Positions 5,928-25,693 of a stretch of 64,000 bases of DNA are shown piece after piece. Position 1 is the first letter of the stretch; the number at the start of each line of letters is the position of its first letter. The notes beneath the pieces are model-generated. The model was given only the letters and a program-made list of their open reading frames with translations, did not search any database and was not told the origin of the DNA. Source of the stretch: Burkholderiales bacterium (GTDB lineage: Bacteria > Pseudomonadota > Gammaproteobacteria > Burkholderiales > JAEUOS01). The stretch covers positions 193 through 64,192 of the forward strand of contig JANLTH010000008.1 of assembly GCA_031362865.1 (NCBI GenBank). Reading direction: 5' to 3'. The translations under genes were made by a program, and so were the position numbers.

Positions 5928-7274
5928 TTACTTGGCCGCGTAAGGGGTGGCAGGGGTCGATCCACTCACCCGCAAAACCTTATTGCCGTCATAAAAGGTG
6001 AAGTGCAGTGGTCGCTCGGCGGTGGCAAGACTCGTGGCAACTTTGTTGATCGCTTCTTCAAAGCTCCCGGAAAACGATGCCCGCAAGTCCAGCGGATAGT
6101 CAATCTGCGCATCCCAAGCCAACTGCCAACCTGCCAGTTCGACCCACCGTGCGAGAGCACGACTGAGAGTTTTATCGGTCTCGGGAACCAGTGCCCATTC
6201 GGGCACTGGGGCTGGTAATGCTGAAGCCAACGTCGAGGTGACAGGGGCCGATACTGCGGCATTTCGCAACTGCGCCAACTGACCCGGCTTCGACGACACC
6301 CTGTGCAAGGTGATTTCACGGTTATCGAAATTCACCACGGCCCGCACATTGGCCGTGGTCATTACGTCCCGCAGCACGTTGATCCACGGACGACCGTTCC
6401 CGTACCAAGACACCTGCTGTTCGACATCTACGCCACCGACTTCAAAGCCCTTAAAATTGGACGGAACGATATGCTCCACGGCTTCCCGTAGGGTCCCGGT
6501 GCCACGTGCCCGAAGACCGGATTGCTTGGGCATCGTGCCAATCGTTTCCACGTCGCCTGCGCGTACCAATGGCATCCGTGAACCCAATGCAACCCGCATG
6601 TCGTTTCGCAAAGTCAAACGCTCTTCGGCAGCATGAGAGGTGGAAGACACAATTGCCAACGGCACTACTGGCACGACAGGAGCGGAAATGGCAGAAGACT
6701 GCTGTGTCGCATGAGGCGGTGCATAGACCGGCGGATGCATTGCCTGTGCCTGGACTACCGGACCCAACACCGAGGCAGCATGTCCGTGCTGCTGCGAAGA
6801 AGTCGGATAGCGATACGAGTTGCCGGACACGCTAGGGTCATTGGCGCGACCTCCAATGTCCAATGGCACAGCCCGTCCGCCATTCATAGCCACTGGTTCC
6901 CGCGCTGGGTATGCCATTGACGCTTGCTCGACAGCGACCGCTCGGTTACTGCTCACATCAATCCGTACCCGGCCTGACACCACGGCGAAACGATCATGCA
7001 CGCCTTGCACGACGACATAAGGGTCTTCCGCGACGGGGTTTGCCAATTGCTCCCCACTTGGCGTGGCAATGAGAATGACTGGTGTCTGGACGCCCCTGGC
7101 AAACTGGAAGTAAGTGCGCTTGCCATCGTGAAACACCTGGGTTGGCGCACCTTCGGCCCGACGATCCGATACCGTATAGACAAAGTGATAGCCTTTCACT
7201 TGAGCAGCGGCGACAGGTGACAATGCTGGGGCCAGCAGACTGGCAAGTACCGCAAGAATTCTGATTTGTTTCAT
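5928..7274 (-). CDS. pilL: PilL-like conjugative-transfer-region protein (TcpQ/PilL-type C-terminal domains), secreted.
   Basis: Signal peptide MKQIRILAVLASLLAPALSPVAAAQ. Two C-terminal segments resemble the PilL/TcpQ type. It heads the pilL-N-O-P-Q-R order. Confidence 0.55.
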   Translation of the reverse strand: MKQIRILAVLASLLAPALSPVAAAQVKGYHFVYTVSDRRAEGAPTQVFHDGKRTYFQFARGVQTPVILIATPSGEQLANPVAEDPYVVVQGVHDRFAVVSGRVRIDVSSNRAVAVEQASMAYPAREPVAMNGGRAVPLDIGGRANDPSVSGNSYRYPTSSQQHGHAASVLGPVVQAQAMHPPVYAPPHATQQSSAISAPVVPVVPLAIVSSTSHAAEERLTLRNDMRVALGSRMPLVRAGDVETIGTMPKQSGLRARGTGTLREAVEHIVPSNFKGFEVGGVDVEQQVSWYGNGRPWINVLRDVMTTANVRAVVNFDNREITLHRVSSKPGQLAQLRNAAVSAPVTSTLASALPAPVPEWALVPETDKTLSRALARWVELAGWQLAWDAQIDYPLDLRASFSGSFEEAINKVATSLATAERPLHFTFYDGNKVLRVSGSTPATPYAAK

Positions 7275-8862: not shown

Positions 8863-10093
8863 CAAACACCATGTCCCGGTTGACCTGGATGGCGATCAAC
8901 GTGCCTTGCGGAACCGTGATCGTGGGCTGAATCACTTTGTTGCGATCCAGAATCCGCTTGCTCGTTTCAGCCAATACTTGACCTGCCGCCGTGCCTGGCG
9001 TAGTCGATCCCGTGTTGACCACCGTCGTTCCTGTTGCTGCCTTGGGTTCGACGACCATCGAAATTGCCGCAATCAGCAATGAGGTGCCGAACTGCTTCAG
9101 GAAGTGGTTGTTCACGTCACCGCTGATCCCTGACTTTCCATGTGCGTCAGCAGCGGGCGAGCCTTGCAGGCGAACACTGCGGCCATCGGGCATGATGAGC
9201 CGCTGAAACGCCATGAGCACACGCTCCTGACCGGGTTGAATCTCGGCGTTGTAACGTCCTACAAGGCGTGATCCGCGTGGGATGAGAAGCTTGTCACCTT
9301 TGATCGAGTCATAAACGTCATTGCTCACACGTGCAGTGACTTGTCCTGGCAAATCGGTATTCAGGCCGTTTACCAGCACCGCTGTAATGATCGAGCCTTC
9401 ATGGAGAACAGCTTTGCCCACTGCCGGATTCACTCGGAGGGACTGGTTCTCACCGTCCGCGCCAAGCCCATCAGCGCCGCTGCCACGCAACCATGACAGA
9501 TTGGACTGGTTAGCATTTTCCGGCGTACGTCCCTGGGTTTGGGCGGCACGAATCAGGGCAGCAATGTCACCATCACCTGATGACTGGCTCCGGCCCTGCA
9601 TGCCAAGCGGTGATGCGGCTTGCGAAATCCCGCGCAGAAGTGCTTGTGCTGTGTCCGTAGTTTGAGACGGTGCCGTTGACGAAGTATTTCCAGTCAATCC
9701 CATCAGAGGGCTTGCCAAGGCTTGCGCACGTGCAATGGCCGCTTCGTCGCCCTTCCCGCCAATCGACTTGGGCGGATTTCTGTCGGCGTAGTCTTTGAGT
9801 TCGCGCGGAATCGGCGTTTCAACCGGCGCAGGCTTGGACTCCGGCTTTTTTTGCGCATCCAGCAATGCCTTGACATCGGCGGCGCTGGGGGCATTTTGCA
9901 AGTTGACCTGCTTGTCTTTATTCGCGGCCTTGGCCTCGGTCTCCTCGGATTGATATGCCTTGAACATGACCCCGAAAAACACCAGGATGCCCACGACGAC
10001 GATGATGATGACATGCAAGTTCTTTTTGACCTTGCCGCGAGGAACTCTCTCGCTTGCCTCATCAACAATATCTGACCCGGCAGCGCGACTCAC
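8849..10093 (-). CDS. trbI: Conjugal transfer protein TrbI (VirB10 family).
   Basis: N-terminal TM, Pro-rich linker, and a C-terminal block LIPRGSRLVGRY...RVLMAFQRLIMPDGRSV...GISGDVNNHF typical of TrbI/VirB10. The GTG start overlaps the trbG stop. Confidence 0.9.
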   Translation of the reverse strand: MSRAAGSDIVDEASERVPRGKVKKNLHVIIIVVVGILVFFGVMFKAYQSEETEAKAANKDKQVNLQNAPSAADVKALLDAQKKPESKPAPVETPIPRELKDYADRNPPKSIGGKGDEAAIARAQALASPLMGLTGNTSSTAPSQTTDTAQALLRGISQAASPLGMQGRSQSSGDGDIAALIRAAQTQGRTPENANQSNLSWLRGSGADGLGADGENQSLRVNPAVGKAVLHEGSIITAVLVNGLNTDLPGQVTARVSNDVYDSIKGDKLLIPRGSRLVGRYNAEIQPGQERVLMAFQRLIMPDGRSVRLQGSPAADAHGKSGISGDVNNHFLKQFGTSLLIAAISMVVEPKAATGTTVVNTGSTTPGTAAGQVLAETSKRILDRNKVIQPTITVPQGTLIAIQVNRDMVFDEDR

Positions 10094-10950
10094 TGATCTG
10101 CCCCTTTGCCGGTTTTGCCGAACAAATTGCTCCAGAAACCACCACTTTGATTCCGTGCCTTGGGCAACACCTTGACCTCTTTGTCTCCAATCTTGAGCAG
10201 TATGCCGTTGGGTGCGAGGCGTTGCAGAACCAGGTAGTTGCCGCGCACCACATAGTTGCCGAGAAGCGCTTCACCGTCTTTCTCAGGGAGAAGAAACAGC
10301 GCTGGCATTTCGGACACTTCGGCCATGCGTAACATCGTGAAGCGCCCGTCATCAAACACCTGAAGTGGACGGAAATGGGCGTCGCCTTGCACGTCGTAGT
10401 CCCAATTCATTTTTGAGACGGCTTCGACCGGGGACACGACCGCCGCCTCACGAACCTTGATGTCCGCAGAAGTGATTTCTTCGCGCTTGCGTTCCTCGAC
10501 CTCCTGTGCCAGAAGCACATCCGGGTAGTGCCACGACACGCGCTGGAACCACTTATCCGAGTGCTTGACCGCATGTAGTACTAACTGGTAGCTACGCTTG
10601 CTGGTGACAATCGTTGCACTGGTTGTCACGCCTTCGCGCACCGGCTTGATGAACAAATGTTTCGTTCCAGGGATTTGCTCCCGGACCCACGAGATTGTGT
10701 CGCCCATGATGAGTCCCTTGAAGGTTTCATCACTGCCAATCTCAATGTTGGTGGCCATGCCCGGTGCAGCGTAGACCGGGAAGGTGTTGTTCACATCGTA
10801 GGCATACACCACCAGACGCGGGTCTCCCGGCATGCTGATGGCCTGCGCCTGGGCGTGCGCGTGGTTCACCGGTGCTGACATAACGCCACTGAAAGCAAGA
10901 GCTGCTACCACGAACGGGCGGGCGAGTTTCGACGTTAGGATCAATTTCAC
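10090..10950 (-). CDS. trbG: Conjugal transfer protein TrbG (VirB9 family).
   Basis: Signal peptide and VirB9/CagX-like repeats (VYAYDVNNTFPVYAAPGMATNIEI). GTGA overlap with trbF. Confidence 0.85.
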   Translation of the reverse strand: MKLILTSKLARPFVVAALAFSGVMSAPVNHAHAQAQAISMPGDPRLVVYAYDVNNTFPVYAAPGMATNIEIGSDETFKGLIMGDTISWVREQIPGTKHLFIKPVREGVTTSATIVTSKRSYQLVLHAVKHSDKWFQRVSWHYPDVLLAQEVEERKREEITSADIKVREAAVVSPVEAVSKMNWDYDVQGDAHFRPLQVFDDGRFTMLRMAEVSEMPALFLLPEKDGEALLGNYVVRGNYLVLQRLAPNGILLKIGDKEVKVLPKARNQSGGFWSNLFGKTGKGADQ

Positions 10951-17893: not shown

Positions 17894-18008
17894 GCCAACA
17901 TGTTGTTGTCGGCATGGCGAATGATCGTTTTGAAAGCACTACTTGACGAGCTGACATTCGTGGCTAATCAAGTCGCCAGTGCTATCCAGTGAGCGCCTTC
18001 TGCGGACG

Positions 18009-18035
18009 AAAAAAAACCCGCCGAAGCGGGGTTTT
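18009..18035 (-). terminator. Rho-independent terminator separating the traD operon from the trb operon.
   Basis: The minus strand reads CCCGC-UUCG-GCGGG followed by a run of eight U, about 30 nt downstream of the 18066 CDS stop. Confidence 0.6.
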
Positions 18036-18065
18036 GTCATGATCGCCCCCCCGCGCCAGAATGCC

Positions 18066-18695: not shown

Positions 18696-19349
18696 CTACG
18701 TAGCAACGGCGAGTGTGGCATTGCCACGACGTTCGACAAATTCGCTGGAAGGACTCAAGGGAGCGCCTCTTCCTTTGACGAACAGGACGTTGAAATCCGT
18801 CGTATCCAGGATGCGCTGCGCAAGGCCATACCGCATCGTGTCTGGTTCGATGACGGCTTTGTCAGGGTACGGCTCGTCCAGCGGCTCGATTCTTCCTGCT
18901 TCGTGCTCACGAATGAACTCAGTTGCCGTGATCTTTAACGGAATCCAGCAAGTCGTCTTGTCGCGATGTACGGCACCCAACCGCTTGTCCAGCAAGCGCG
19001 GTGCAAATTCAATCAGCCCGGCGAGGAAGGCGTAATACTGATCGCCACTTCGCTCCTTGACGGCCTTTTCGTGGGCGGCGATACCACTGCGCAAACATTC
19101 ATGCAACAAAGGCTCGTCGGTGCCCGGAAATTGCGGCGAGACGACTTCAACCAGCAGTTCACACACAACCTCCAAAGGGGGATAGTTGTTGAAGATTGCT
19201 CTTCCCTTCGGATGCAGACCGATGGCTTTGAGGGCCACTGCCAACTCTACCTTCGCCTTTTTCTTCAGATTCACTTCAACACTCACTTTCTTCACCAAAC
19301 ACGCAATGTCTTGCCTCACACCAGAGCAGGTTTTTTTTCTCGCACTCAT
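18696..19349 (-). CDS. Hypothetical soluble protein coupled to traD.
   Basis: ATGA overlap with the traD stop. No motif I recognise. Confidence 0.5.
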   Translation of the reverse strand: MSARKKTCSGVRQDIACLVKKVSVEVNLKKKAKVELAVALKAIGLHPKGRAIFNNYPPLEVVCELLVEVVSPQFPGTDEPLLHECLRSGIAAHEKAVKERSGDQYYAFLAGLIEFAPRLLDKRLGAVHRDKTTCWIPLKITATEFIREHEAGRIEPLDEPYPDKAVIEPDTMRYGLAQRILDTTDFNVLFVKGRGAPLSPSSEFVERRGNATLAVAT

Positions 19350-21235
19350 CCATCGAGCATCAACGGCAAGCGACCTTTGATGATTCGGCCGCCCGTGAGC
19401 ATCGCGAAATACTGCAAGTTCGGTAGTCTCAGCATCAATTCAGGCCGTACCAATCTGGACTCTTTGTAGCCCAAGGACGAACCCGCATTGGTGCCGAACT
19501 CCATCGCGCTTTTTTCGGATGACTGTGACGAACCCGCCGAGTAGGAGACCGAGCGAACCTGTACGTCGCCAATACATTCCGAGAGCCACTCTGCCGTTTT
19601 CGGGTCACGAACACGCAGACAGATCATGTTGTTCTGGTTACCGAACACCTGACGTGCTTTTGCCTGGCTTTCCAGTGCCGCTTCGAAGTCAGAATCCACC
19701 TGGGTTGCGAAGAAAATCTTGAATCCTGCACCGCGCCCCTTATTGAGAAGCTGGATGAACTGATCGTTCACCACTTCGGACGCCTCATCGACGAACAGAT
19801 ACACGTCCGCCTTGGTGCCCATGTTGTAGATCGCGCCCGCGACGGCAGCAAGATCGGCCAGAGCCATCGAACCGACCGCACCGGCAATCGTTTTGTTGGA
19901 AAGGGCATCAAGCCCCATGTAGAGCACGCGCTTTCCCGTGATGACCCGCCAAAGATCGGTGATACCGCGCTGATCGTTCAAGTCAGTTTCGTTGGGTGAC
20001 AGCATTTCACCGACTTCGCCGGACGTGAGCGTCAACAGCAAGGGCGTCAATGCCAGGATCATCTTGGAAAAATGTTCTTTGTTATGCGTGTGGACGCTAA
20101 TCAAATCGGCAATCGTTTGACTTCCTGCCTGCTTTTTCTGCTTGCACCAGTCTTGGTAGAACATCGAGGCTTGAGCCGCTCGATCAGCAGGGCCTTTACC
20201 GCCTGGCGCTTGCTGATAGGCACCCAAGTCCTTGTCCCAATCGGGGCCGACGTGCTCACGTAAAAAAATATCCAAGCAACGCTCCAGCAGTGGCCCGACA
20301 CCATTACGTACCCAACCATAAATGCGACGCAAGTCCGGCTTGTCACCGACCATGAGCATGCCATTGACAATCTGACTCATCGTCATCTCGCCAAATGCTC
20401 CAAAACTGTCGTTTGCACCCAGCACGTTCGCGATCCGGGCGCCGATGTCCAAGGGATTTGCCCAGTTCGCGATTGGGTTGATGCGAACTGACTTCGAGGG
20501 ATAGGCTGGCGAGAAATACAGAAATGGCACGCCATTGCGCTCACACTCCTTCTTGACGCGCGCACGCCAGGCATCATCGTTTTTTGGATCGATGATGATG
20601 ACCGACCCCAAATCAGCAGTCGATTGCACCATTGCCTGAATGGCCTGCATGGTGAGCCATTCGTAGAGGCGGGTTTTGCCGGAACCGGTTGTCCCGGCAA
20701 TAAATGTGTGCCCCTCCATTGCGCCCATCGGGAAAACGAGGTCCTTCTCTTCCTCAAGCCCATGAATCCACGACACTCCGGTACGTCTGTCCGCGAGCAG
20801 TGGAATCGTGCTTTCTGGCTGACAGAAACGGAGCATCCGGTCATTGGCACTACCCATCCAAGCTGGAAAGATGGTCAAGTCCTTTTCAGGGACATTGAGC
20901 AGTTCAAACGCGCGCTGGGCGTGCTCGGGAGTCCAGTCGAATCCTTGTCCGATGTAGAAGCCCATCTTCTCCAACGCGGCTTTACCAATGATGTCCGCCC
21001 TTTCGCCAGTACATGTTTCGAGGAATTGGTTTGACAGGCGAACCTTGATCGAGATTTGGGTAGCTGCCTGATAGCCGCGCCATCCAGCGATACCCAAACA
21101 ACCGAGTCCGACTCCAACGGCCAACGAAGCATGCGGAATGGTCAACGCCGCCAACGCTGCCACAGCCCATCCACCTGCTGCGACATGTTCGAGAACAGGC
21201 CGGAAAAATGGGGCATATCGGTCTGGGGTTTGCAT
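19346..21235 (-). CDS. traD: Type IV coupling protein (TraD/VirD4 family, ICE-type TraD).
   Basis: Two N-terminal TM helices, Walker A GTTGSGKT, and Walker B-like YLFVDEASE. Confidence 0.85.
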   Translation of the reverse strand: MQTPDRYAPFFRPVLEHVAAGGWAVAALAALTIPHASLAVGVGLGCLGIAGWRGYQAATQISIKVRLSNQFLETCTGERADIIGKAALEKMGFYIGQGFDWTPEHAQRAFELLNVPEKDLTIFPAWMGSANDRMLRFCQPESTIPLLADRRTGVSWIHGLEEEKDLVFPMGAMEGHTFIAGTTGSGKTRLYEWLTMQAIQAMVQSTADLGSVIIIDPKNDDAWRARVKKECERNGVPFLYFSPAYPSKSVRINPIANWANPLDIGARIANVLGANDSFGAFGEMTMSQIVNGMLMVGDKPDLRRIYGWVRNGVGPLLERCLDIFLREHVGPDWDKDLGAYQQAPGGKGPADRAAQASMFYQDWCKQKKQAGSQTIADLISVHTHNKEHFSKMILALTPLLLTLTSGEVGEMLSPNETDLNDQRGITDLWRVITGKRVLYMGLDALSNKTIAGAVGSMALADLAAVAGAIYNMGTKADVYLFVDEASEVVNDQFIQLLNKGRGAGFKIFFATQVDSDFEAALESQAKARQVFGNQNNMICLRVRDPKTAEWLSECIGDVQVRSVSYSAGSSQSSEKSAMEFGTNAGSSLGYKESRLVRPELMLRLPNLQYFAMLTGGRIIKGRLPLMLDG

Positions 21236-21244
21236 CGCGAACTG

Positions 21245-22402
21245 CTAGTCCATCGGAAACAAGATCAGGCCGAATGCCTTGTTCAGGACAAGCAAGTCGC
21301 TGGATGACGGACGGGTATGTTCTCGCCGACGCAACTCTGCCACGATGGCCCCTGGCGTGGGAATCGCGTATTTTGACGCGAAAAGTGTCTTCTGGATTTC
21401 CAGCACGCCGCTGTTCCACTTGACCTTCTCCAGTACCTTGGCATCCCCTTTTGCGATGTCTTTACGCAACTCCTCACAAAACTGGCGTGTTGCAGGCGTT
21501 AAGCCAGCAAGAAGATCGTCAGAAGCCAGTGCGGACGAGCTGTCACTCACTTTGGTCGCCGTGACTGCCTGTTCACTTCTAGCGGCGGCCATGACATCCG
21601 CGACATCCACGACGGGCGAGACAACTGGCATAGCTCGTCCAGTCAGCCGGCCTTGCGCCCCCGCTACCATATCGTCTTCGGAGAGGGACGACTGCACCTG
21701 CGCGTTCATGGCACGCTTGATCGCATCGGTCTCCAGCTCGATGGCCCGACGCACCGCCGCGCGAACCACTTTTTCCAGCGGCGTTGAGACGCCCTGTTTC
21801 TGTGGGTCAGGTGCAATGGCACCGAAAAGCTGTGCTCTTACATCGGACTCCAAACCACTAAGTACTGCACCTGTCAGGATCGTTCGCGCGTGAAGAATCG
21901 TGATCGCCCTGTCCGGTGCAACCGGCGAATGCTTTGCAGTCACCTCATAGCTTTCTGAATCTAGCCACGCATTCAGCGTCTCGGTCTCGATCAGGGATCC
22001 TTGCCAGACCTCACCGGTTGATGGTTTGACTACGGAGATCCGTTCGTCACGCAACGCGAGATAGCTACACAGACCTGCCAGGTATGCAGCACGCCGGTAT
22101 TGTTGTTCGATGCCACGCCGTCGCTCAATCGAGAGCAGCGCACCAAACACCGTGCCTTCGGCCAAGCGCATCGCGTAATAGCCCGTTTCCAGCGATGCAC
22201 GAGACGCACCACCGGGCTCGCGCCACACGTCTATTGCGAGGGGGACATCGGCGAACCAGTCGGCGATGGCACGTAGTGGACTGACAAACCCCAAATCGAA
22301 TTGGGCCGCGCTGATTGACGCGGCATCATCCACGAACTTGAGACGGGAGGCCAGAGCCTCCATGCGTACTGCCAATGATCTGTAGGGCAACAACATGGGC
22401 AC
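21245..22402 (-). CDS. MobH/TraI_2-like protein, possibly a catalytically inactive or truncated relaxase homologue.
   Basis: It lies directly upstream of traD, as ICE relaxases do. The block pattern resembles the TraI_2 family, but the positions I remember as His-rich read VPLAIDVWREPGGASRASLE and LAGLCSYLA. It is only 385 aa. Confidence 0.4.
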   Translation of the reverse strand: MPMLLPYRSLAVRMEALASRLKFVDDAASISAAQFDLGFVSPLRAIADWFADVPLAIDVWREPGGASRASLETGYYAMRLAEGTVFGALLSIERRRGIEQQYRRAAYLAGLCSYLALRDERISVVKPSTGEVWQGSLIETETLNAWLDSESYEVTAKHSPVAPDRAITILHARTILTGAVLSGLESDVRAQLFGAIAPDPQKQGVSTPLEKVVRAAVRRAIELETDAIKRAMNAQVQSSLSEDDMVAGAQGRLTGRAMPVVSPVVDVADVMAAARSEQAVTATKVSDSSSALASDDLLAGLTPATRQFCEELRKDIAKGDAKVLEKVKWNSGVLEIQKTLFASKYAIPTPGAIVAELRRREHTRPSSSDLLVLNKAFGLILFPMD

Positions 22403-22657: not shown

Positions 22658-23842
22658 ATGGCATCCACAAAACCTACCACCGCAGTCAGCACAGCCAAAC
22701 CCACGCAAGCCGCCAACCCTGATGCTTCATCATCAGACTCATCGTCATCAGGGCAAGTCGTGGTCTACGACTACAGCGCTTGCACTCCCGAAGACCGCGC
22801 TGCACTGACATGCCACGTTCAATCGATTCGTTCGGCAGAGACGCGGGTCAACAACGACATCCTGCTGATTGGTGAGTGTTTGACGGATGCGCAGGAGCGA
22901 CTGTCGCGTGAAAGTGGCGGAAAGCAAATTGCAGGCGGCGGCTTCATCGCTTGGGTCAAAGCCGAGTTTGGATGGGGTATTGATTCAGCGTATCGCTACA
23001 TCTCCATCTTCAAAGAATTCGGCACGAGTTACGCCACGTGGCGTAACTCGCAGGGCCTAACAACCCTTCCGAATATGCCTTTCCGCGCGCTTGCAGTTCT
23101 CGCGCAACTGGCCGACGAAGAAACCAAGGCCAAGTTTGTCGCCAAAGCCGATGCTGGCGAAAAAGTCACCGTCAAGGAAGTCCAGGACGCACTGGATCAG
23201 GTGAGACGCGCCGACGAAAAAACGCAAGCAGCCATAGACCGCGCCAAAGCAGCTGAAGAAGCCGCCCTCTCCGCCGACGATGCCCGCAAAGATGCCGAGC
23301 GCGAGGCAAACGCGCTCAAAGAAGACAATCACAAGATGCTCAAACTCAAGGAGCAGTGGCAGCAAGGCGTCGAGGAGTCCAGAAAGCATCAGCGCACGAT
23401 AAACGATATGGTTCAGCGCGGCACTGAACTCGACAAAGAGGTCTATGACCTCAAAAAGAAGATTGCGCACATGAACGCAAACCCGTCATTCAAAGACAAG
23501 CCAACCCTGCCGGCTGAATACAAGTCGATGCAGGACTTGAAAAAAGACCTGACCGCTCTGGAGACGAAACGCTCCGGCGAGGAGCAGGCACTGCAAAAAT
23601 TGAAAGCCGATAGGGAGTCATTGGAGAAGAGGCTGGGCGAACTGGAGATCAACTTCAAGGTCGAGCAGAGCAAAGCTGCTCGTGCCGCCGACTTGACCAA
23701 GGCATGGGAACGGTTCTGCGGGCAGCTTCTGGAAGTTGCCGCTTCCGCTGCGAACGCCGATAAGAAACAGAAGGCGCATCTTCTCGAACTGGCATCCGCC
23801 ATGATCGAGAAGGGTACATTGCTCAAATCAGTCGCAGCATAG
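22658..23842 (+). CDS. DUF3102-like DNA-binding N-domain plus a long KfrA-like coiled coil.
   Basis: AAGGAG 7 nt upstream of the ATG. Segment ILLIGECLTDAQERL...GGFIAWVKAEFGWGIDSAYRYISIFKEF is DUF3102-like. The C-terminal roughly 200 aa are K/E/A/L-rich heptad-like sequence. Confidence 0.55.
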   Translation: MASTKPTTAVSTAKPTQAANPDASSSDSSSSGQVVVYDYSACTPEDRAALTCHVQSIRSAETRVNNDILLIGECLTDAQERLSRESGGKQIAGGGFIAWVKAEFGWGIDSAYRYISIFKEFGTSYATWRNSQGLTTLPNMPFRALAVLAQLADEETKAKFVAKADAGEKVTVKEVQDALDQVRRADEKTQAAIDRAKAAEEAALSADDARKDAEREANALKEDNHKMLKLKEQWQQGVEESRKHQRTINDMVQRGTELDKEVYDLKKKIAHMNANPSFKDKPTLPAEYKSMQDLKKDLTALETKRSGEEQALQKLKADRESLEKRLGELEINFKVEQSKAARAADLTKAWERFCGQLLEVAASAANADKKQKAHLLELASAMIEKGTLLKSVAA

Positions 23843-23850
23843 GAGTACCT

Positions 23851-25059
23851 ATGGTGCAGCCCGTCTATGCGCCCTTGGCTCCGTTGCAGGTCAGCCTGCT
23901 CATCCAAATTCGGAGCATGAATCGCGACTTCCTTGATTCGTTGCTGATGGATATTCGCTTGCCGGTGAATGTGGGGGTAGCGCTAAGCGAACTTCCGAAT
24001 TCGGCTCGGGAGTACGTCGTAGGTGCACTGAACCAGGCAGACATTCGCTCAATCCTGTCCAGTAGCGTGGCACTAGCGATGATGCCAGTCGTTTTACCAG
24101 GCCGGAGCCTCATCAATCCGCAGGGGGAACTGATGCTCGATGCCCTTGATGGCAGTTCGTCGTATGAATACCTGCTGCATTCACAAGTACGCTGGGCGAA
24201 GTTGGCTGTGCTTTTGTGCAGAGAGTATCGACTGGCATCGGCAGTGCTGGGGCTATCAGTGGAGGTCTGCGATGCCATCGCGAGCAACGCTACCCCGTTT
24301 TTGATGCACTTTACAGAAACAAAGAAGCTGCACTTGGGGTTGCGCGTGACGAGTGAGCGATTCTGGAAGCGAGCGGCCTCGGACGATACCTACGGGCTGC
24401 ACCACCACTTTGCGGCAGCGATGCTGCCGTCACTGGGGGCACATCCACCGCATTCTGGAAAGCTGCAATCTGGCTTTCCATCGACGGCGATTTCAGACAA
24501 ACGAAAAGTCGCGTTGGCGGAATGGGCCTTCGAGTACGACATGCGGGCGGCGGTCGTTGCGCCTGCACTGTCGTTGCCTGCACGTCAGGCTCGCAGCATT
24601 TACATGGAGGCACATCACGGCAAGCCGTCGCCCAGCGGTCTGCAGCCATCTTCGTTGCACTACTTCACCCATTCGATCCCGCGCATTCATGTTGGTGTGT
24701 TGCGCGCAGGAAGCGTTGAGGTGGACAGTGGCGAAACCAGCATGGAGGCGTTTTTGCATGCCTTTCAGTTCTACGCAGAGTTTTTTGGAGGGGATGACCA
24801 TGCGGCGAGACGAGCAATCAAAGCGGATCGTGCCTGGCATGCGTGGCGCTTCTTGTCGCGGGAATTTTTATCGATGCCTTGCCGCAGTTGTGGCACGCCG
24901 TATCTGACGCTCAAAGAGGAATCGGTGCGCCGCTTCACCTGCCCCGCCTGCGACGGGGATCTGGACAAGAGCCTGCACTTGCGTGAGATGGCGGCGAGGC
25001 GACTTGATGCAAAACGATCAACGCCAGCGAACTCAACACACGAGCATACTCATGCGTGA
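23851..25059 (+). CDS. FlhC-like transcriptional activator with an N-terminal extension containing FlhD-like segments.
   Basis: The C-terminal half aligns by eye to E. coli FlhC, including the Cys4 site CRSC-x16-CPAC. See findings. Confidence 0.55.
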   Translation: MVQPVYAPLAPLQVSLLIQIRSMNRDFLDSLLMDIRLPVNVGVALSELPNSAREYVVGALNQADIRSILSSSVALAMMPVVLPGRSLINPQGELMLDALDGSSSYEYLLHSQVRWAKLAVLLCREYRLASAVLGLSVEVCDAIASNATPFLMHFTETKKLHLGLRVTSERFWKRAASDDTYGLHHHFAAAMLPSLGAHPPHSGKLQSGFPSTAISDKRKVALAEWAFEYDMRAAVVAPALSLPARQARSIYMEAHHGKPSPSGLQPSSLHYFTHSIPRIHVGVLRAGSVEVDSGETSMEAFLHAFQFYAEFFGGDDHAARRAIKADRAWHAWRFLSREFLSMPCRSCGTPYLTLKEESVRRFTCPACDGDLDKSLHLREMAARRLDAKRSTPANSTHEHTHA

Positions 25060-25137: not shown

Positions 25138-25365
25138 ATGAGTGACGCTTCGGCAAAAATAGGCAGAAAAACAGGGCTCCCCGCCGCCGTCCCCGCACAG
25201 GGTTTTTTTTCCCCAGCCAGCGCAATGGCCTACTTGGATGTCGGAAAAACCCAGTTCTACCGATGGCTCAATGATGGTATCGTGCCTCGACCACAAATTG
25301 ACGATGGTCGAAAGCTTCGTCGCTGGACTAAAGCGCAATTGGATGCCGTCGCAAAGAGACGCTAG
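25138..25365 (+). CDS. alpA: AlpA-family (phage/ICE excisionase-like) HTH regulator.
   Basis: 75 aa with YLDVGKTQFYRWLNDGIVPRP...RRWTKAQLD, typical of the AlpA/MerR-type winged HTH. Confidence 0.8.
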   Translation: MSDASAKIGRKTGLPAAVPAQGFFSPASAMAYLDVGKTQFYRWLNDGIVPRPQIDDGRKLRRWTKAQLDAVAKRR

Positions 25366-25693
25366 ACAATTCAATCGAAAGTTTTTCACAAACTCTCGAA
25401 GTTCTTATTTGTGATCTTTTGTTCTTTTCTTGGAATCTTTTGAATTCAATGGTTGCGAGGATGTAACACTTATTTCCCTATGAAACCTCGATTTATCATT
25501 GCGTCTCTGCCAATTGAAGTCAACATTTTCAACGCATTTGTTTTTAGCATAGCGCAGTTTTTGATGGCACTTTTGTTGGTATTTTTTCTATAACTTTTTG
25601 TTTTGTATAGCAATTCGAACTCCTAAGCTTCCGCCAATATGGCGAATGGTTTCCCTGGAGACTTGGCGCTTGATATCAGCACCAGTTTTTCCC

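Follow-up and report, generated by a model that had tools for sequence, protein, structure and literature searches.

The DNA analyzed here (the window) is a stretch of 64,000 nucleotides from a Burkholderiales bacterium (GenBank assembly GCA_031362865.1, contig JANLTH010000008.1). At positions 23851..25059 of its + strand lies an open reading frame (ORF) with an ATG start that encodes 402 amino acids (aa); an earlier note on this DNA had listed a 402-aa ORF at 23851-25059, and coordinates and length were exactly as claimed. The encoded protein joins modules of FlhD and FlhC type in a single chain. From the N-terminus, all on the + strand, it contains a segment that is probably a diverged FlhD-like unit (segment 1, residues ~12-96, 23884..24138), an FlhD-homologous unit (segment 2, residues ~101-192, 24151..24426), a linker (residues ~193-213, 24427..24489), an FlhC domain (residues 214-368, 24490..24954) and a basic C-terminal helix (residues 373-389, 24967..25017). 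Heteromers of FlhDC type, among them FlhD4C2, SetCD and AcaCD, are the master switches that control flagella as well as the transfer of major resistance-carrying elements.

Residues 214-368 make up a genuine FlhC domain, and every test that we ran agreed on this. The Pfam family FlhC (PF05280) matched at 43.1 bits (gathering cut-off 27, E 5.1e-11), with residues 214-368 corresponding to profile positions 7-161 of 173. The same Pfam family was matched by all 14 members of the protein family to which the window protein belongs. BLASTP against E. coli K-12 FlhC gave an E-value of 5e-9 with the four cysteines aligned, in the register from which the earlier note had called the C-terminal part FlhC-like. 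When the profile of the 14-member family was compared with PDB sequences, FlhC was found at E 5.5e-16 (8j56_C) and E 3.4e-12 (2avu_E).

The four cysteines form the motif C344-x2-C347-x16-C364-x2-C367 (24880..24951, + strand), which is invariant in 14 of 14 aligned family members. They align with the FlhC cysteines both in BLASTP and in the comparison of the family profile with PDB, which makes the motif a putative metal site and bears out the earlier remark that its spacing is that of the FlhC zinc site. The NCBIfam equivalog model for FlhC (NF009365) scored 44.3 bits, below its cut-off of 216. The window protein is a member of the FlhC family and not the flagellar FlhC orthologue.

A full-length AlphaFold2 model was built from an 11-sequence alignment, with a mean predicted local distance difference test score (pLDDT) of 66.8 and a predicted template modelling score (pTM) of 0.69. 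In Foldseek this model matched C. necator FlhC (8j56_C, E 1.1e-4) and E. coli FlhC (2avu_E, E 5.3e-4) with template modelling (TM) scores of 0.75 and 0.77, normalised to FlhC, and a root-mean-square deviation (rmsd) of 3.0-3.3 Å on both crystal chains. Beyond FlhC, the search with the full model gave no significant match. Superposition on the FlhD4C2 structure had been suggested in the earlier note, and the FlhC half answered it with these TM values of 0.75-0.77. The linker between the FlhD-like half and the FlhC domain is a region of low confidence; residues 193-211 had pLDDT below 50 in this model and in a second model of the N-terminal half. Behind the zinc site, residues 373-389 form a helix in the model, and the C-terminal tail is rich in Arg and Lys across the family.

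In the N-terminal half the FlhD-like signal is above chance at profile level only, and standard single-sequence tests miss it. Pfam reported no family on residues 1-209 at E<=10, and BLASTP against E. coli FlhD found nothing in the N-terminal half. The Pfam family FlhD gave a weak match in only 2 of the 14 family members (best E 0.016). Comparison with the Pfam FlhD profile, which the earlier note had proposed, was therefore negative for the window protein itself; remote-homology profile methods were positive for segment 2.

The 14-member family profile matched C. necator FlhD in PDB (8j56_A, E 1.9e-5), with positions 111-197 placed on FlhD residues 8-95. A profile of segment 2 (window residues ~101-184) gave three matches among PDB sequences at E<=10, all of them FlhD (8j56_A, 1.8e-6; 1g8e_A, 0.015; 5hxg_B, 0.023). 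For profile-profile comparison we used an alignment of 14 flagellar FlhD sequences from E. coli, other enterics, Burkholderiaceae replicons, an IncX5 plasmid and Rahnella. Segment 2 matched this alignment in hhalign with a probability of 95.4% (E 1.9e-8, 67 columns). The score was 47.5, and 200 column shuffles reached a maximum of 17.2. The earlier note had set AVLGLSVEVCDAIAS..FTETKKLHLGLRV against AMFRLGINEEMATTLAA..LAETNQLVCHFRF, and hhalign found the identical register. Element-type FlhD subunits, which are encoded as separate proteins in sister elements and are themselves clear FlhD homologues (97.9%, E 6.3e-13), matched segment 2 at 97.7% (E 1.5e-12). Even the window's own segment 2, used as a single sequence, matched them at 90.5% (E 1.4e-6).

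The predicted elements of segment 2 are helices 106-125, 129-133, 137-145 and 147-156, a strand at 162-164, and helices 169-176 and 180-190. The model of the N-terminal half (residues 1-212) had pLDDT 71.5 and pTM 0.71. Foldseek superposed it on E. coli FlhD (2avu_B) over 94 columns with a TM score of 0.60, normalised to FlhD, and an rmsd of 3.6 Å, at a non-significant E-value of 4.2. This match had the highest probability in the table (0.30) and was the only geometrically sensible one of the 50 listed, the others having an rmsd of 10-37 Å. Taken as a whole, profile-sequence and profile-profile comparisons firmly support segment 2 as an FlhD homologue.

Segment 1 is predicted to contain helices 14-36, 43-46, 50-60 and 63-70 and a strand at 77-79. 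In the model of residues 1-212, the order of a long helix, three short helices and a strand repeats in both segments. Segment 1 aligned with segment 2 in hhalign over 73 columns in register (probability 73.9%, E 2.9e-5). Its score was 30.1, above the maxima of 18.8 in 200 column shuffles and of 28.4 in 150 block shuffles that keep the local helical pattern; as controls, the reversed segment 2 scored 9.6 and the FlhC part 10.9. With element-type FlhD, the alignment of segment 1 begins at helix 1, reaches the Trp that follows the strand and comprises 79 columns (59.3%, E 9.1e-5); none of 150 shuffles reached the score of 28.8 (block-shuffle maximum 22.1). The conserved Asn of helix 1 and the Trp after the strand share aligned columns in these comparisons, and N24 is invariant in the family. 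Because the window's segment 1 alone shows no signal, the assignment draws on family membership, that is, on the colinear alignment and the invariant N24. These profile links make it quite probable that segment 1 is a diverged duplicate of the D unit. The earlier note had spoken of one or two FlhD-like segments: one of them, segment 2, is firm (95.4%), and the second is probable with weaker values (59-74%) that still beat the shuffles. Its pairing of LLIQIRSMNRDFL with LLKHIYDINLSYL is the register that hhalign picks, but the pairing is not significant alone (E 0.19).

The ORF is real and is conserved as one reading frame. An identical protein (P0001) is present in the public protein collection, and a second, independent Logan assembly also yields the identical 402-aa protein. 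A sibling from an unrelated metagenome (P0002, 406 aa, 78% identical) is colinear over residues 3-401 without gaps. Because of this colinear sibling and the independent assembly, the single frame is not a sequencing accident. Family members that are only ~20-25% identical keep the same one-frame architecture of ~395 aa. With the protein and then the family alignment as query, word-indexed homologue searches recovered no more than the identical protein, the 78% sibling and one representative, so that AlphaFold had no deep alignment to work from. A genome scan of GTDB species representatives with the protein alone found no relative. None of the frames of the window holds a further ORF that resembles FlhD or FlhC.

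The two halves do exist as separate genes elsewhere, as the earlier note had suggested looking for. Among short proteins, those most closely related to the FlhC domain (P0004 and P0005, 32-33% identity) are encoded in elements with a matching local layout. In these sister elements (L099 and L100), a MobH relaxase gene on the - strand is followed on the + strand by genes for a ~355-aa coiled-coil protein, an FlhD of 104-105 aa and an FlhC of 180-182 aa. The 104-105-aa gene product has a Pfam FlhD match and shares an R(I/L)...FW motif with segment 2. In L099 a type IV coupling protein gene precedes the relaxase gene and an integrase gene is nearby. The L099 relaxase is homologous to the window relaxase (E 1e-28), and the L099 coiled-coil protein is homologous to the protein encoded directly upstream of the fused gene in the window (the partner; E 4e-9, with a shared PAEY motif). 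Since relaxases and partners are homologous, the window gene occupies the slot of the split flhD-flhC pair. Together, the split D and C proteins have ~285 aa compared with 402 aa here, a difference that corresponds in size to segment 1 and the linker. Since split and fused versions alike retain the partner, it is a third component, not a D subunit.

The fused protein belongs to a family of long FlhC proteins. tblastn against PLSDB found 52 Burkholderiaceae plasmids (Burkholderia, Cupriavidus, Paraburkholderia, Ralstonia, Caballeronia), and in 22 of the 30 listed rows the alignment begins well ahead of the FlhC domain, at query residues 19-128. One plasmid protein aligns colinearly with the window protein over residues 19-371 (E 4e-17). 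We inspected three plasmid loci. Their genes encode 395-399 aa and carry the RefSeq label "FlhC family transcriptional regulator", RefSeq recognising only the FlhC domain in the fused plasmid proteins, and each is preceded by a gene for a 411-423-aa hypothetical protein. In the inspected plasmids this gene pair lies between the SSB/primase block and the pilus genes, not beside the relaxase gene. One host plasmid is typed MOBH/MPF_T, as is the window's element. The window copy is no singleton but, at ~24% identity, a divergent representative of an unstudied family.

When 1.84 billion cluster representatives were searched exhaustively with phmmer, just 41 matched, and they fall into four architectures: the ~394-aa long family, tandem FlhC-FlhC proteins of ~370-400 aa, one 317-aa protein with a canonical FlhD (61 bits) and FlhC (185 bits), and classical FlhC-like proteins of 160-230 aa. 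The tandem proteins (P0003, P0009, P0013, P0015, P0017, P0018, P0020 and P0026) have two complete zinc-binding FlhC domains. At the one such locus examined (P0003, L097:1368-2761), FlhD is encoded separately, by a 94-aa gene that overlaps the beginning of the tandem gene, and tandem FlhC-FlhC plus separate FlhD is the reverse stoichiometric arrangement to the window protein. The 317-aa protein (P0028) is a 1:1 FlhD-FlhC fusion present in two assemblies (L095:5001-5954, L096:3745-4698). Its neighbours look chromosomal (OsmC, a histidine phosphatase, an MvaT/H-NS-like gene), and the context is neither flagellar nor mobile. Like the window protein, P0028 and the tandem proteins join FlhD/FlhC-type modules in one chain; P0028 differs from the window protein by its single canonical FlhD and its non-mobile-looking context. 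A further match, a 4652-aa SprB-repeat protein (P0007, E 4.4e-11), was rejected as a repetitive or compositional false positive, as query residues 52-118 matched it in 10 stretches.

A stand-alone "FlhD" gene of 88 aa, 37% identical to C. necator FlhD, was also seen on many Enterobacteriaceae plasmids. At the one locus examined, on the IncX5 plasmid pEhoE1-4 (L093:1489-1755), no FlhC gene is annotated adjacent to it. Full-text literature searches found no description of a fused FlhD-FlhC regulator. The fusion, of which the earlier note knew no description, is not unique to the window, given the family on Burkholderiaceae plasmids.

The partner gene (22658..23842, + strand) encodes 394 aa, with a DUF3102 region (Pfam E 6e-7) followed by a long coiled coil. 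Homologues of the partner precede both fused genes (L003 against the window, E 8e-5) and split flhD-flhC genes (L099, E 4e-9). The partner gene ends just before the fused gene: an AGGAG Shine-Dalgarno sequence (23841..23845, + strand) overlaps its TAG stop (23840-23842) and lies 5 nucleotides before the ATG. No terminator-like site was found on the + strand between the two genes, and a promoter scan found no sigma-70 consensus upstream of the partner gene. This layout suggests that the fused gene is co-transcribed, and probably translationally coupled, with the partner gene. The partner probably modulates or assists the fused regulator.

A DUF3102 plus coiled-coil protein of ~355-420 aa is encoded immediately upstream of FlhD/FlhC genes, split or fused, in every locus listed (window 22658-23842; L002:4608-5879; L003:4296-5531; L004:4583-5833; L099:2114-3178). 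Near the end of the coiled coil it has a conserved P(A/E)(E/S)Y motif. Against PDB sequences the partner matched only generic coiled coils and no ParB domain, and against PHROG only families of unknown function. In the literature found, DUF3102 has only passing mentions.

The setting is one end of an integrative conjugative element (ICE) in a betaproteobacterium. To the left of the locus, on the - strand, are type IVB pilus genes (PilN secretin, PilP, assembly ATPase) and a Trb/VirB-type type IV secretion system (T4SS; VirB4/TrbE, VirB11, VirB9, VirB10, TrbF, TrbJ). These are followed by genes for an SXT-type TraD coupling protein (19346..21235, - strand; TIGR03743, 615.7 bits against a cut-off of 366) and a MobH-type relaxase of 385 aa (21245..22402, - strand; NCBIfam MobH E 4.6e-14, Pfam TraI_2), which is divergent from the partner and fused genes. 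To the right lies a 75-aa HTH_17/AlpA-excisionase-like gene (25138..25365, + strand; Pfam HTH_17 E 4.7e-5, PHROG excisionase and regulator families). The sibling element has an equivalent small helix-turn-helix gene followed by a tyrosine integrase gene. Unlike the sibling element, the window has no integrase at this end, and no tRNA was found anywhere in the window. From ~25.7 kb the genes look chromosomal (cupin, DUF6709, queC, metY), and the window MetY is 84% identical to that of the best-matching uncultured Burkholderiales metagenome-assembled genome.

Several further observations concern the element itself. From the AlpA-like gene to the first gene of chromosomal appearance, at 25366-25693, the GC content is 37%, compared with ~55% in the surroundings; this AT-rich stretch is probably the element boundary or attachment region. 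The relaxase has just 385 aa (a TraI_2 N-domain plus tail) and its sister versions 358-384 aa; it may represent a compact relaxase subtype. A 448-aa ORF (5928-7274, - strand) between the T4SS block and the PilN secretin gene matches the C-terminal part of VirB9/TrbG with its first ~100 residues; the full VirB9 gene is a different one, at 10090-10950. Upstream of virB11, at 17990-18040, is a GC-rich hairpin (CCCGCCGAAGCGGG) with an A-run on one side and a T-run on the other, which resembles a bidirectional intrinsic terminator. A de novo motif search in eight intergenic regions of the element gave a marginal result, as 4 regions were matched compared with 3 in shuffles and the motif was T-rich. 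One of its sites is the T-tract of the hairpin upstream of virB11, and the motif was rejected as evidence for an operator.

We favour the reading that the locus encodes a covalently fused FlhDC-type factor of a MOBH-family ICE, in which D is duplicated and D-D is fused to C, and that this factor is likely to activate transfer. The ancestral state would be that kept in the sister elements, with a coiled-coil partner gene and separate flhD-like (~105 aa) and flhC-like (~180 aa) genes. In the window lineage, a tandem duplication of the D unit would then have given a D-D module that became joined to C by a flexible linker of ~20 residues. In FlhD4C2 each FlhC binds an FlhD dimer, according to work cited in PMC10838148. 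The two FlhD-like units may pack as an intramolecular pseudo-dimer that replaces this FlhD2 dimer, so that a single chain would correspond to a D2C protomer and a pair of chains to the hexamer. With a covalent linkage the stoichiometry would be fixed, and the first unit could diverge freely.

DNA binding would fall to the zinc-binding FlhC domain and its basic tail, which would contact operators upstream of weak transfer-gene promoters and recruit RNA polymerase as SetCD and AcaCD do. Candidate targets are the trb/virB-type T4SS, the type IVB pilus, traD/mobH and excision functions. We infer the pseudo-dimer, the hexamer equivalent and the activation of element promoters from the precedent of FlhD4C2, SetCD and AcaCD. 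A stronger proposal is that the covalent FlhD2C protomer works only together with its DUF3102/coiled-coil partner, which would define a three-component class of activators (partner plus D'-D-C, where D' is the diverged first unit). This is a tentative suggestion that we regard as rather doubtful.

Other explanations were weighed against this reading. That a lost stop or a frameshift has joined ordinary separate setD/setC-like genes, as the earlier note considered, is effectively refuted. The split flhD and flhC genes of the sister elements have overlapping or abutting ends that a single-base error could in principle join, but such an error would have had to produce the identical 402-aa protein in an independent Logan assembly and a colinear 406-aa sibling at 78% identity. 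Representatives and RefSeq plasmid genes at 20-25% identity also keep a single frame of ~395 aa, and the chain is ~115 aa longer than D and C together, which simple read-through would not give. A chain with one FlhD-like unit only, that is, an FlhD-FlhC fusion whose residues 1-100 are an unrelated helical extension, is unlikely but deserves more weight. By analogy with BisC, which is described with an extra N-terminal dimerisation domain (PMC12409273), the extension could be a dimerisation or partner-binding module, and P0028 is an existing example of a simple 1:1 fusion. Several results speak for it and weigh against two units. Segment 1 reached an hhalign probability of 0.3% with flagellar FlhD, with helix 1 alone aligned, and its profile found no FlhD match among PDB sequences. 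As a single sequence the window's segment 1 gave no signal, and its FlhD likeness comes from family-level profile links with probabilities of just 59-74%. As further points against the favoured reading, the Foldseek E-values for the N-terminal half were all non-significant (2avu_B, E 4.2, rank 10 by E-value), and model confidence is moderate (pLDDT 66.8 and 71.5, from an 11-sequence alignment). AcaD (22.8 kDa) and Rts1 SetD (174 aa) also have to be considered, as two units in these proteins would make the duplication older and less special. An unrelated extension, however, would not be expected to give in-register alignments of 73-79 columns to segment 2 and also to element-type FlhD, at scores (30.1 and 28.8) above every one of 150-200 column- or block-shuffled nulls. 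Nor would it be expected to repeat the order of long helix, three short helices and strand, with the conserved helix-1 Asn and post-strand Trp in matching aligned columns.

The function assigned to the fused protein has its own alternative, in which it is not a transfer activator. It might repress transfer, act solely on genes for the type IVB pilus or for maintenance, or interfere with the flagellar FlhDC regulon of the host. The motif search in the eight intergenic regions found no convincing shared operator, which counts against the activator and in favour of this alternative. On the plasmids, moreover, the gene pair lies between the SSB/primase block and the pilus genes and not beside the relaxase gene. 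The Burkholderiales include genera with flagellar flhDC, and work cited within PMC4344509 indicates that FlhDC-family factors can have non-flagellar targets. Even so, the FlhDC-type pairs that have been characterised on MOBH elements are all activators of transfer (PMC4344509, PMC4207636, PMC10838148). In the window, L099 and L100 the locus is divergent from the relaxase operon and beside excision or integration genes, and in the window and L099 the relaxase operon also encodes the coupling protein. We consider a non-activating role improbable.

If the three-component proposal holds, the partner and the D'-D-C chain would form a class of activators that serves MOBH/Trb-type plasmids and ICEs of Burkholderiales. 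In that case, the family as a whole would have explored subunit stoichiometry through gene fusion, with split (D + C), D-C, C-C + D and D'-D-C forms. A natural single chain with an extra diverged D unit would offer a stoichiometrically fixed construct for structural and biochemical work, and would lend independent evolutionary support to D2C as the functional protomer. The matched split and fused versions in syntenic elements allow a direct test of what fusion and duplication buy. The family also flags a regulator for unstudied MOBH/Trb-type plasmids and ICEs in Burkholderia, Paraburkholderia and Cupriavidus, where it is annotated just as "FlhC family".

Compared with the sister elements L099 and L100, the window has the same local gene order and a homologous relaxase, partner and FlhC domain, and their D subunit matches segment 2 (97.7%). 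In L099 and L100, D and C are separate genes with one D unit, whereas the window has a single chain with an extra unit of ~100 aa. Compared with flagellar FlhD4C2 (2AVU, 8J56), the window protein shares the FlhC fold, the Cys4 zinc site and an FlhD-homologous unit, and the 2 D : 1 C ratio is the same if segment 1 counts as a D unit. Flagellar FlhD and FlhC are separate subunits of the hexamer; the window protein is one chain, and its gene belongs to a mobile element instead of a flagellar regulon. It scores far below the FlhC equivalog cut-off (44 compared with 216 bits) and has no Pfam FlhD match of its own.

BisDC of ICEclc consists of an FlhC-like protein, BisC, with an extra N-terminal domain, and a larger upstream-encoded partner (PMC7423338, PMC12409273). 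BisC is a DUF2857 protein without a zinc site and BisD is a ParB-like CTP clamp (PMC7423338, PMC12409273). The window resembles this system in having a two-gene ICE locus with a larger upstream-encoded partner. The earlier note had included DUF2857 among the families to check; the window protein has no match to it and keeps the Cys4 site, and a BisC-type identity was rejected for these reasons. The window partner, unlike BisD, has DUF3102 and a coiled coil and no ParB domain match.

SetCD (SXT/R391), AcaCD (IncA/IncC plasmids) and Rts1 Orf246/247 are FlhDC-type proteins on MOBH elements and are master activators of transfer, excision and related promoters (PMC4344509, PMC4207636, PMC10838148). 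Both SetCD and AcaCD act at weak promoters, where they bind boxes at the -35 region, and turn on transfer genes (PMC4344509, PMC4207636). The window gene is likewise an FlhDC-type gene on a MOBH element near transfer and excision genes, and its element has an SXT-type TraD. tblastn, also with E. coli FlhC as query, detected no similarity to SetCD, AcaCD or Rts1 Orf246/247. Their elements have F-type mating-pair formation, whereas the window has Trb/VirB-type genes plus a type IVB pilus, and the papers describe no DUF3102/coiled-coil partner ahead of the SetCD, AcaCD or Rts1 genes. SetCD, AcaCD and the Rts1 proteins are two separate, co-purifying polypeptides, and the window protein is one chain of 402 aa. 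FlhDC-type activation was already known as the work of two polypeptides; the new feature described here is the single chain, with a probable D'-D-C order.

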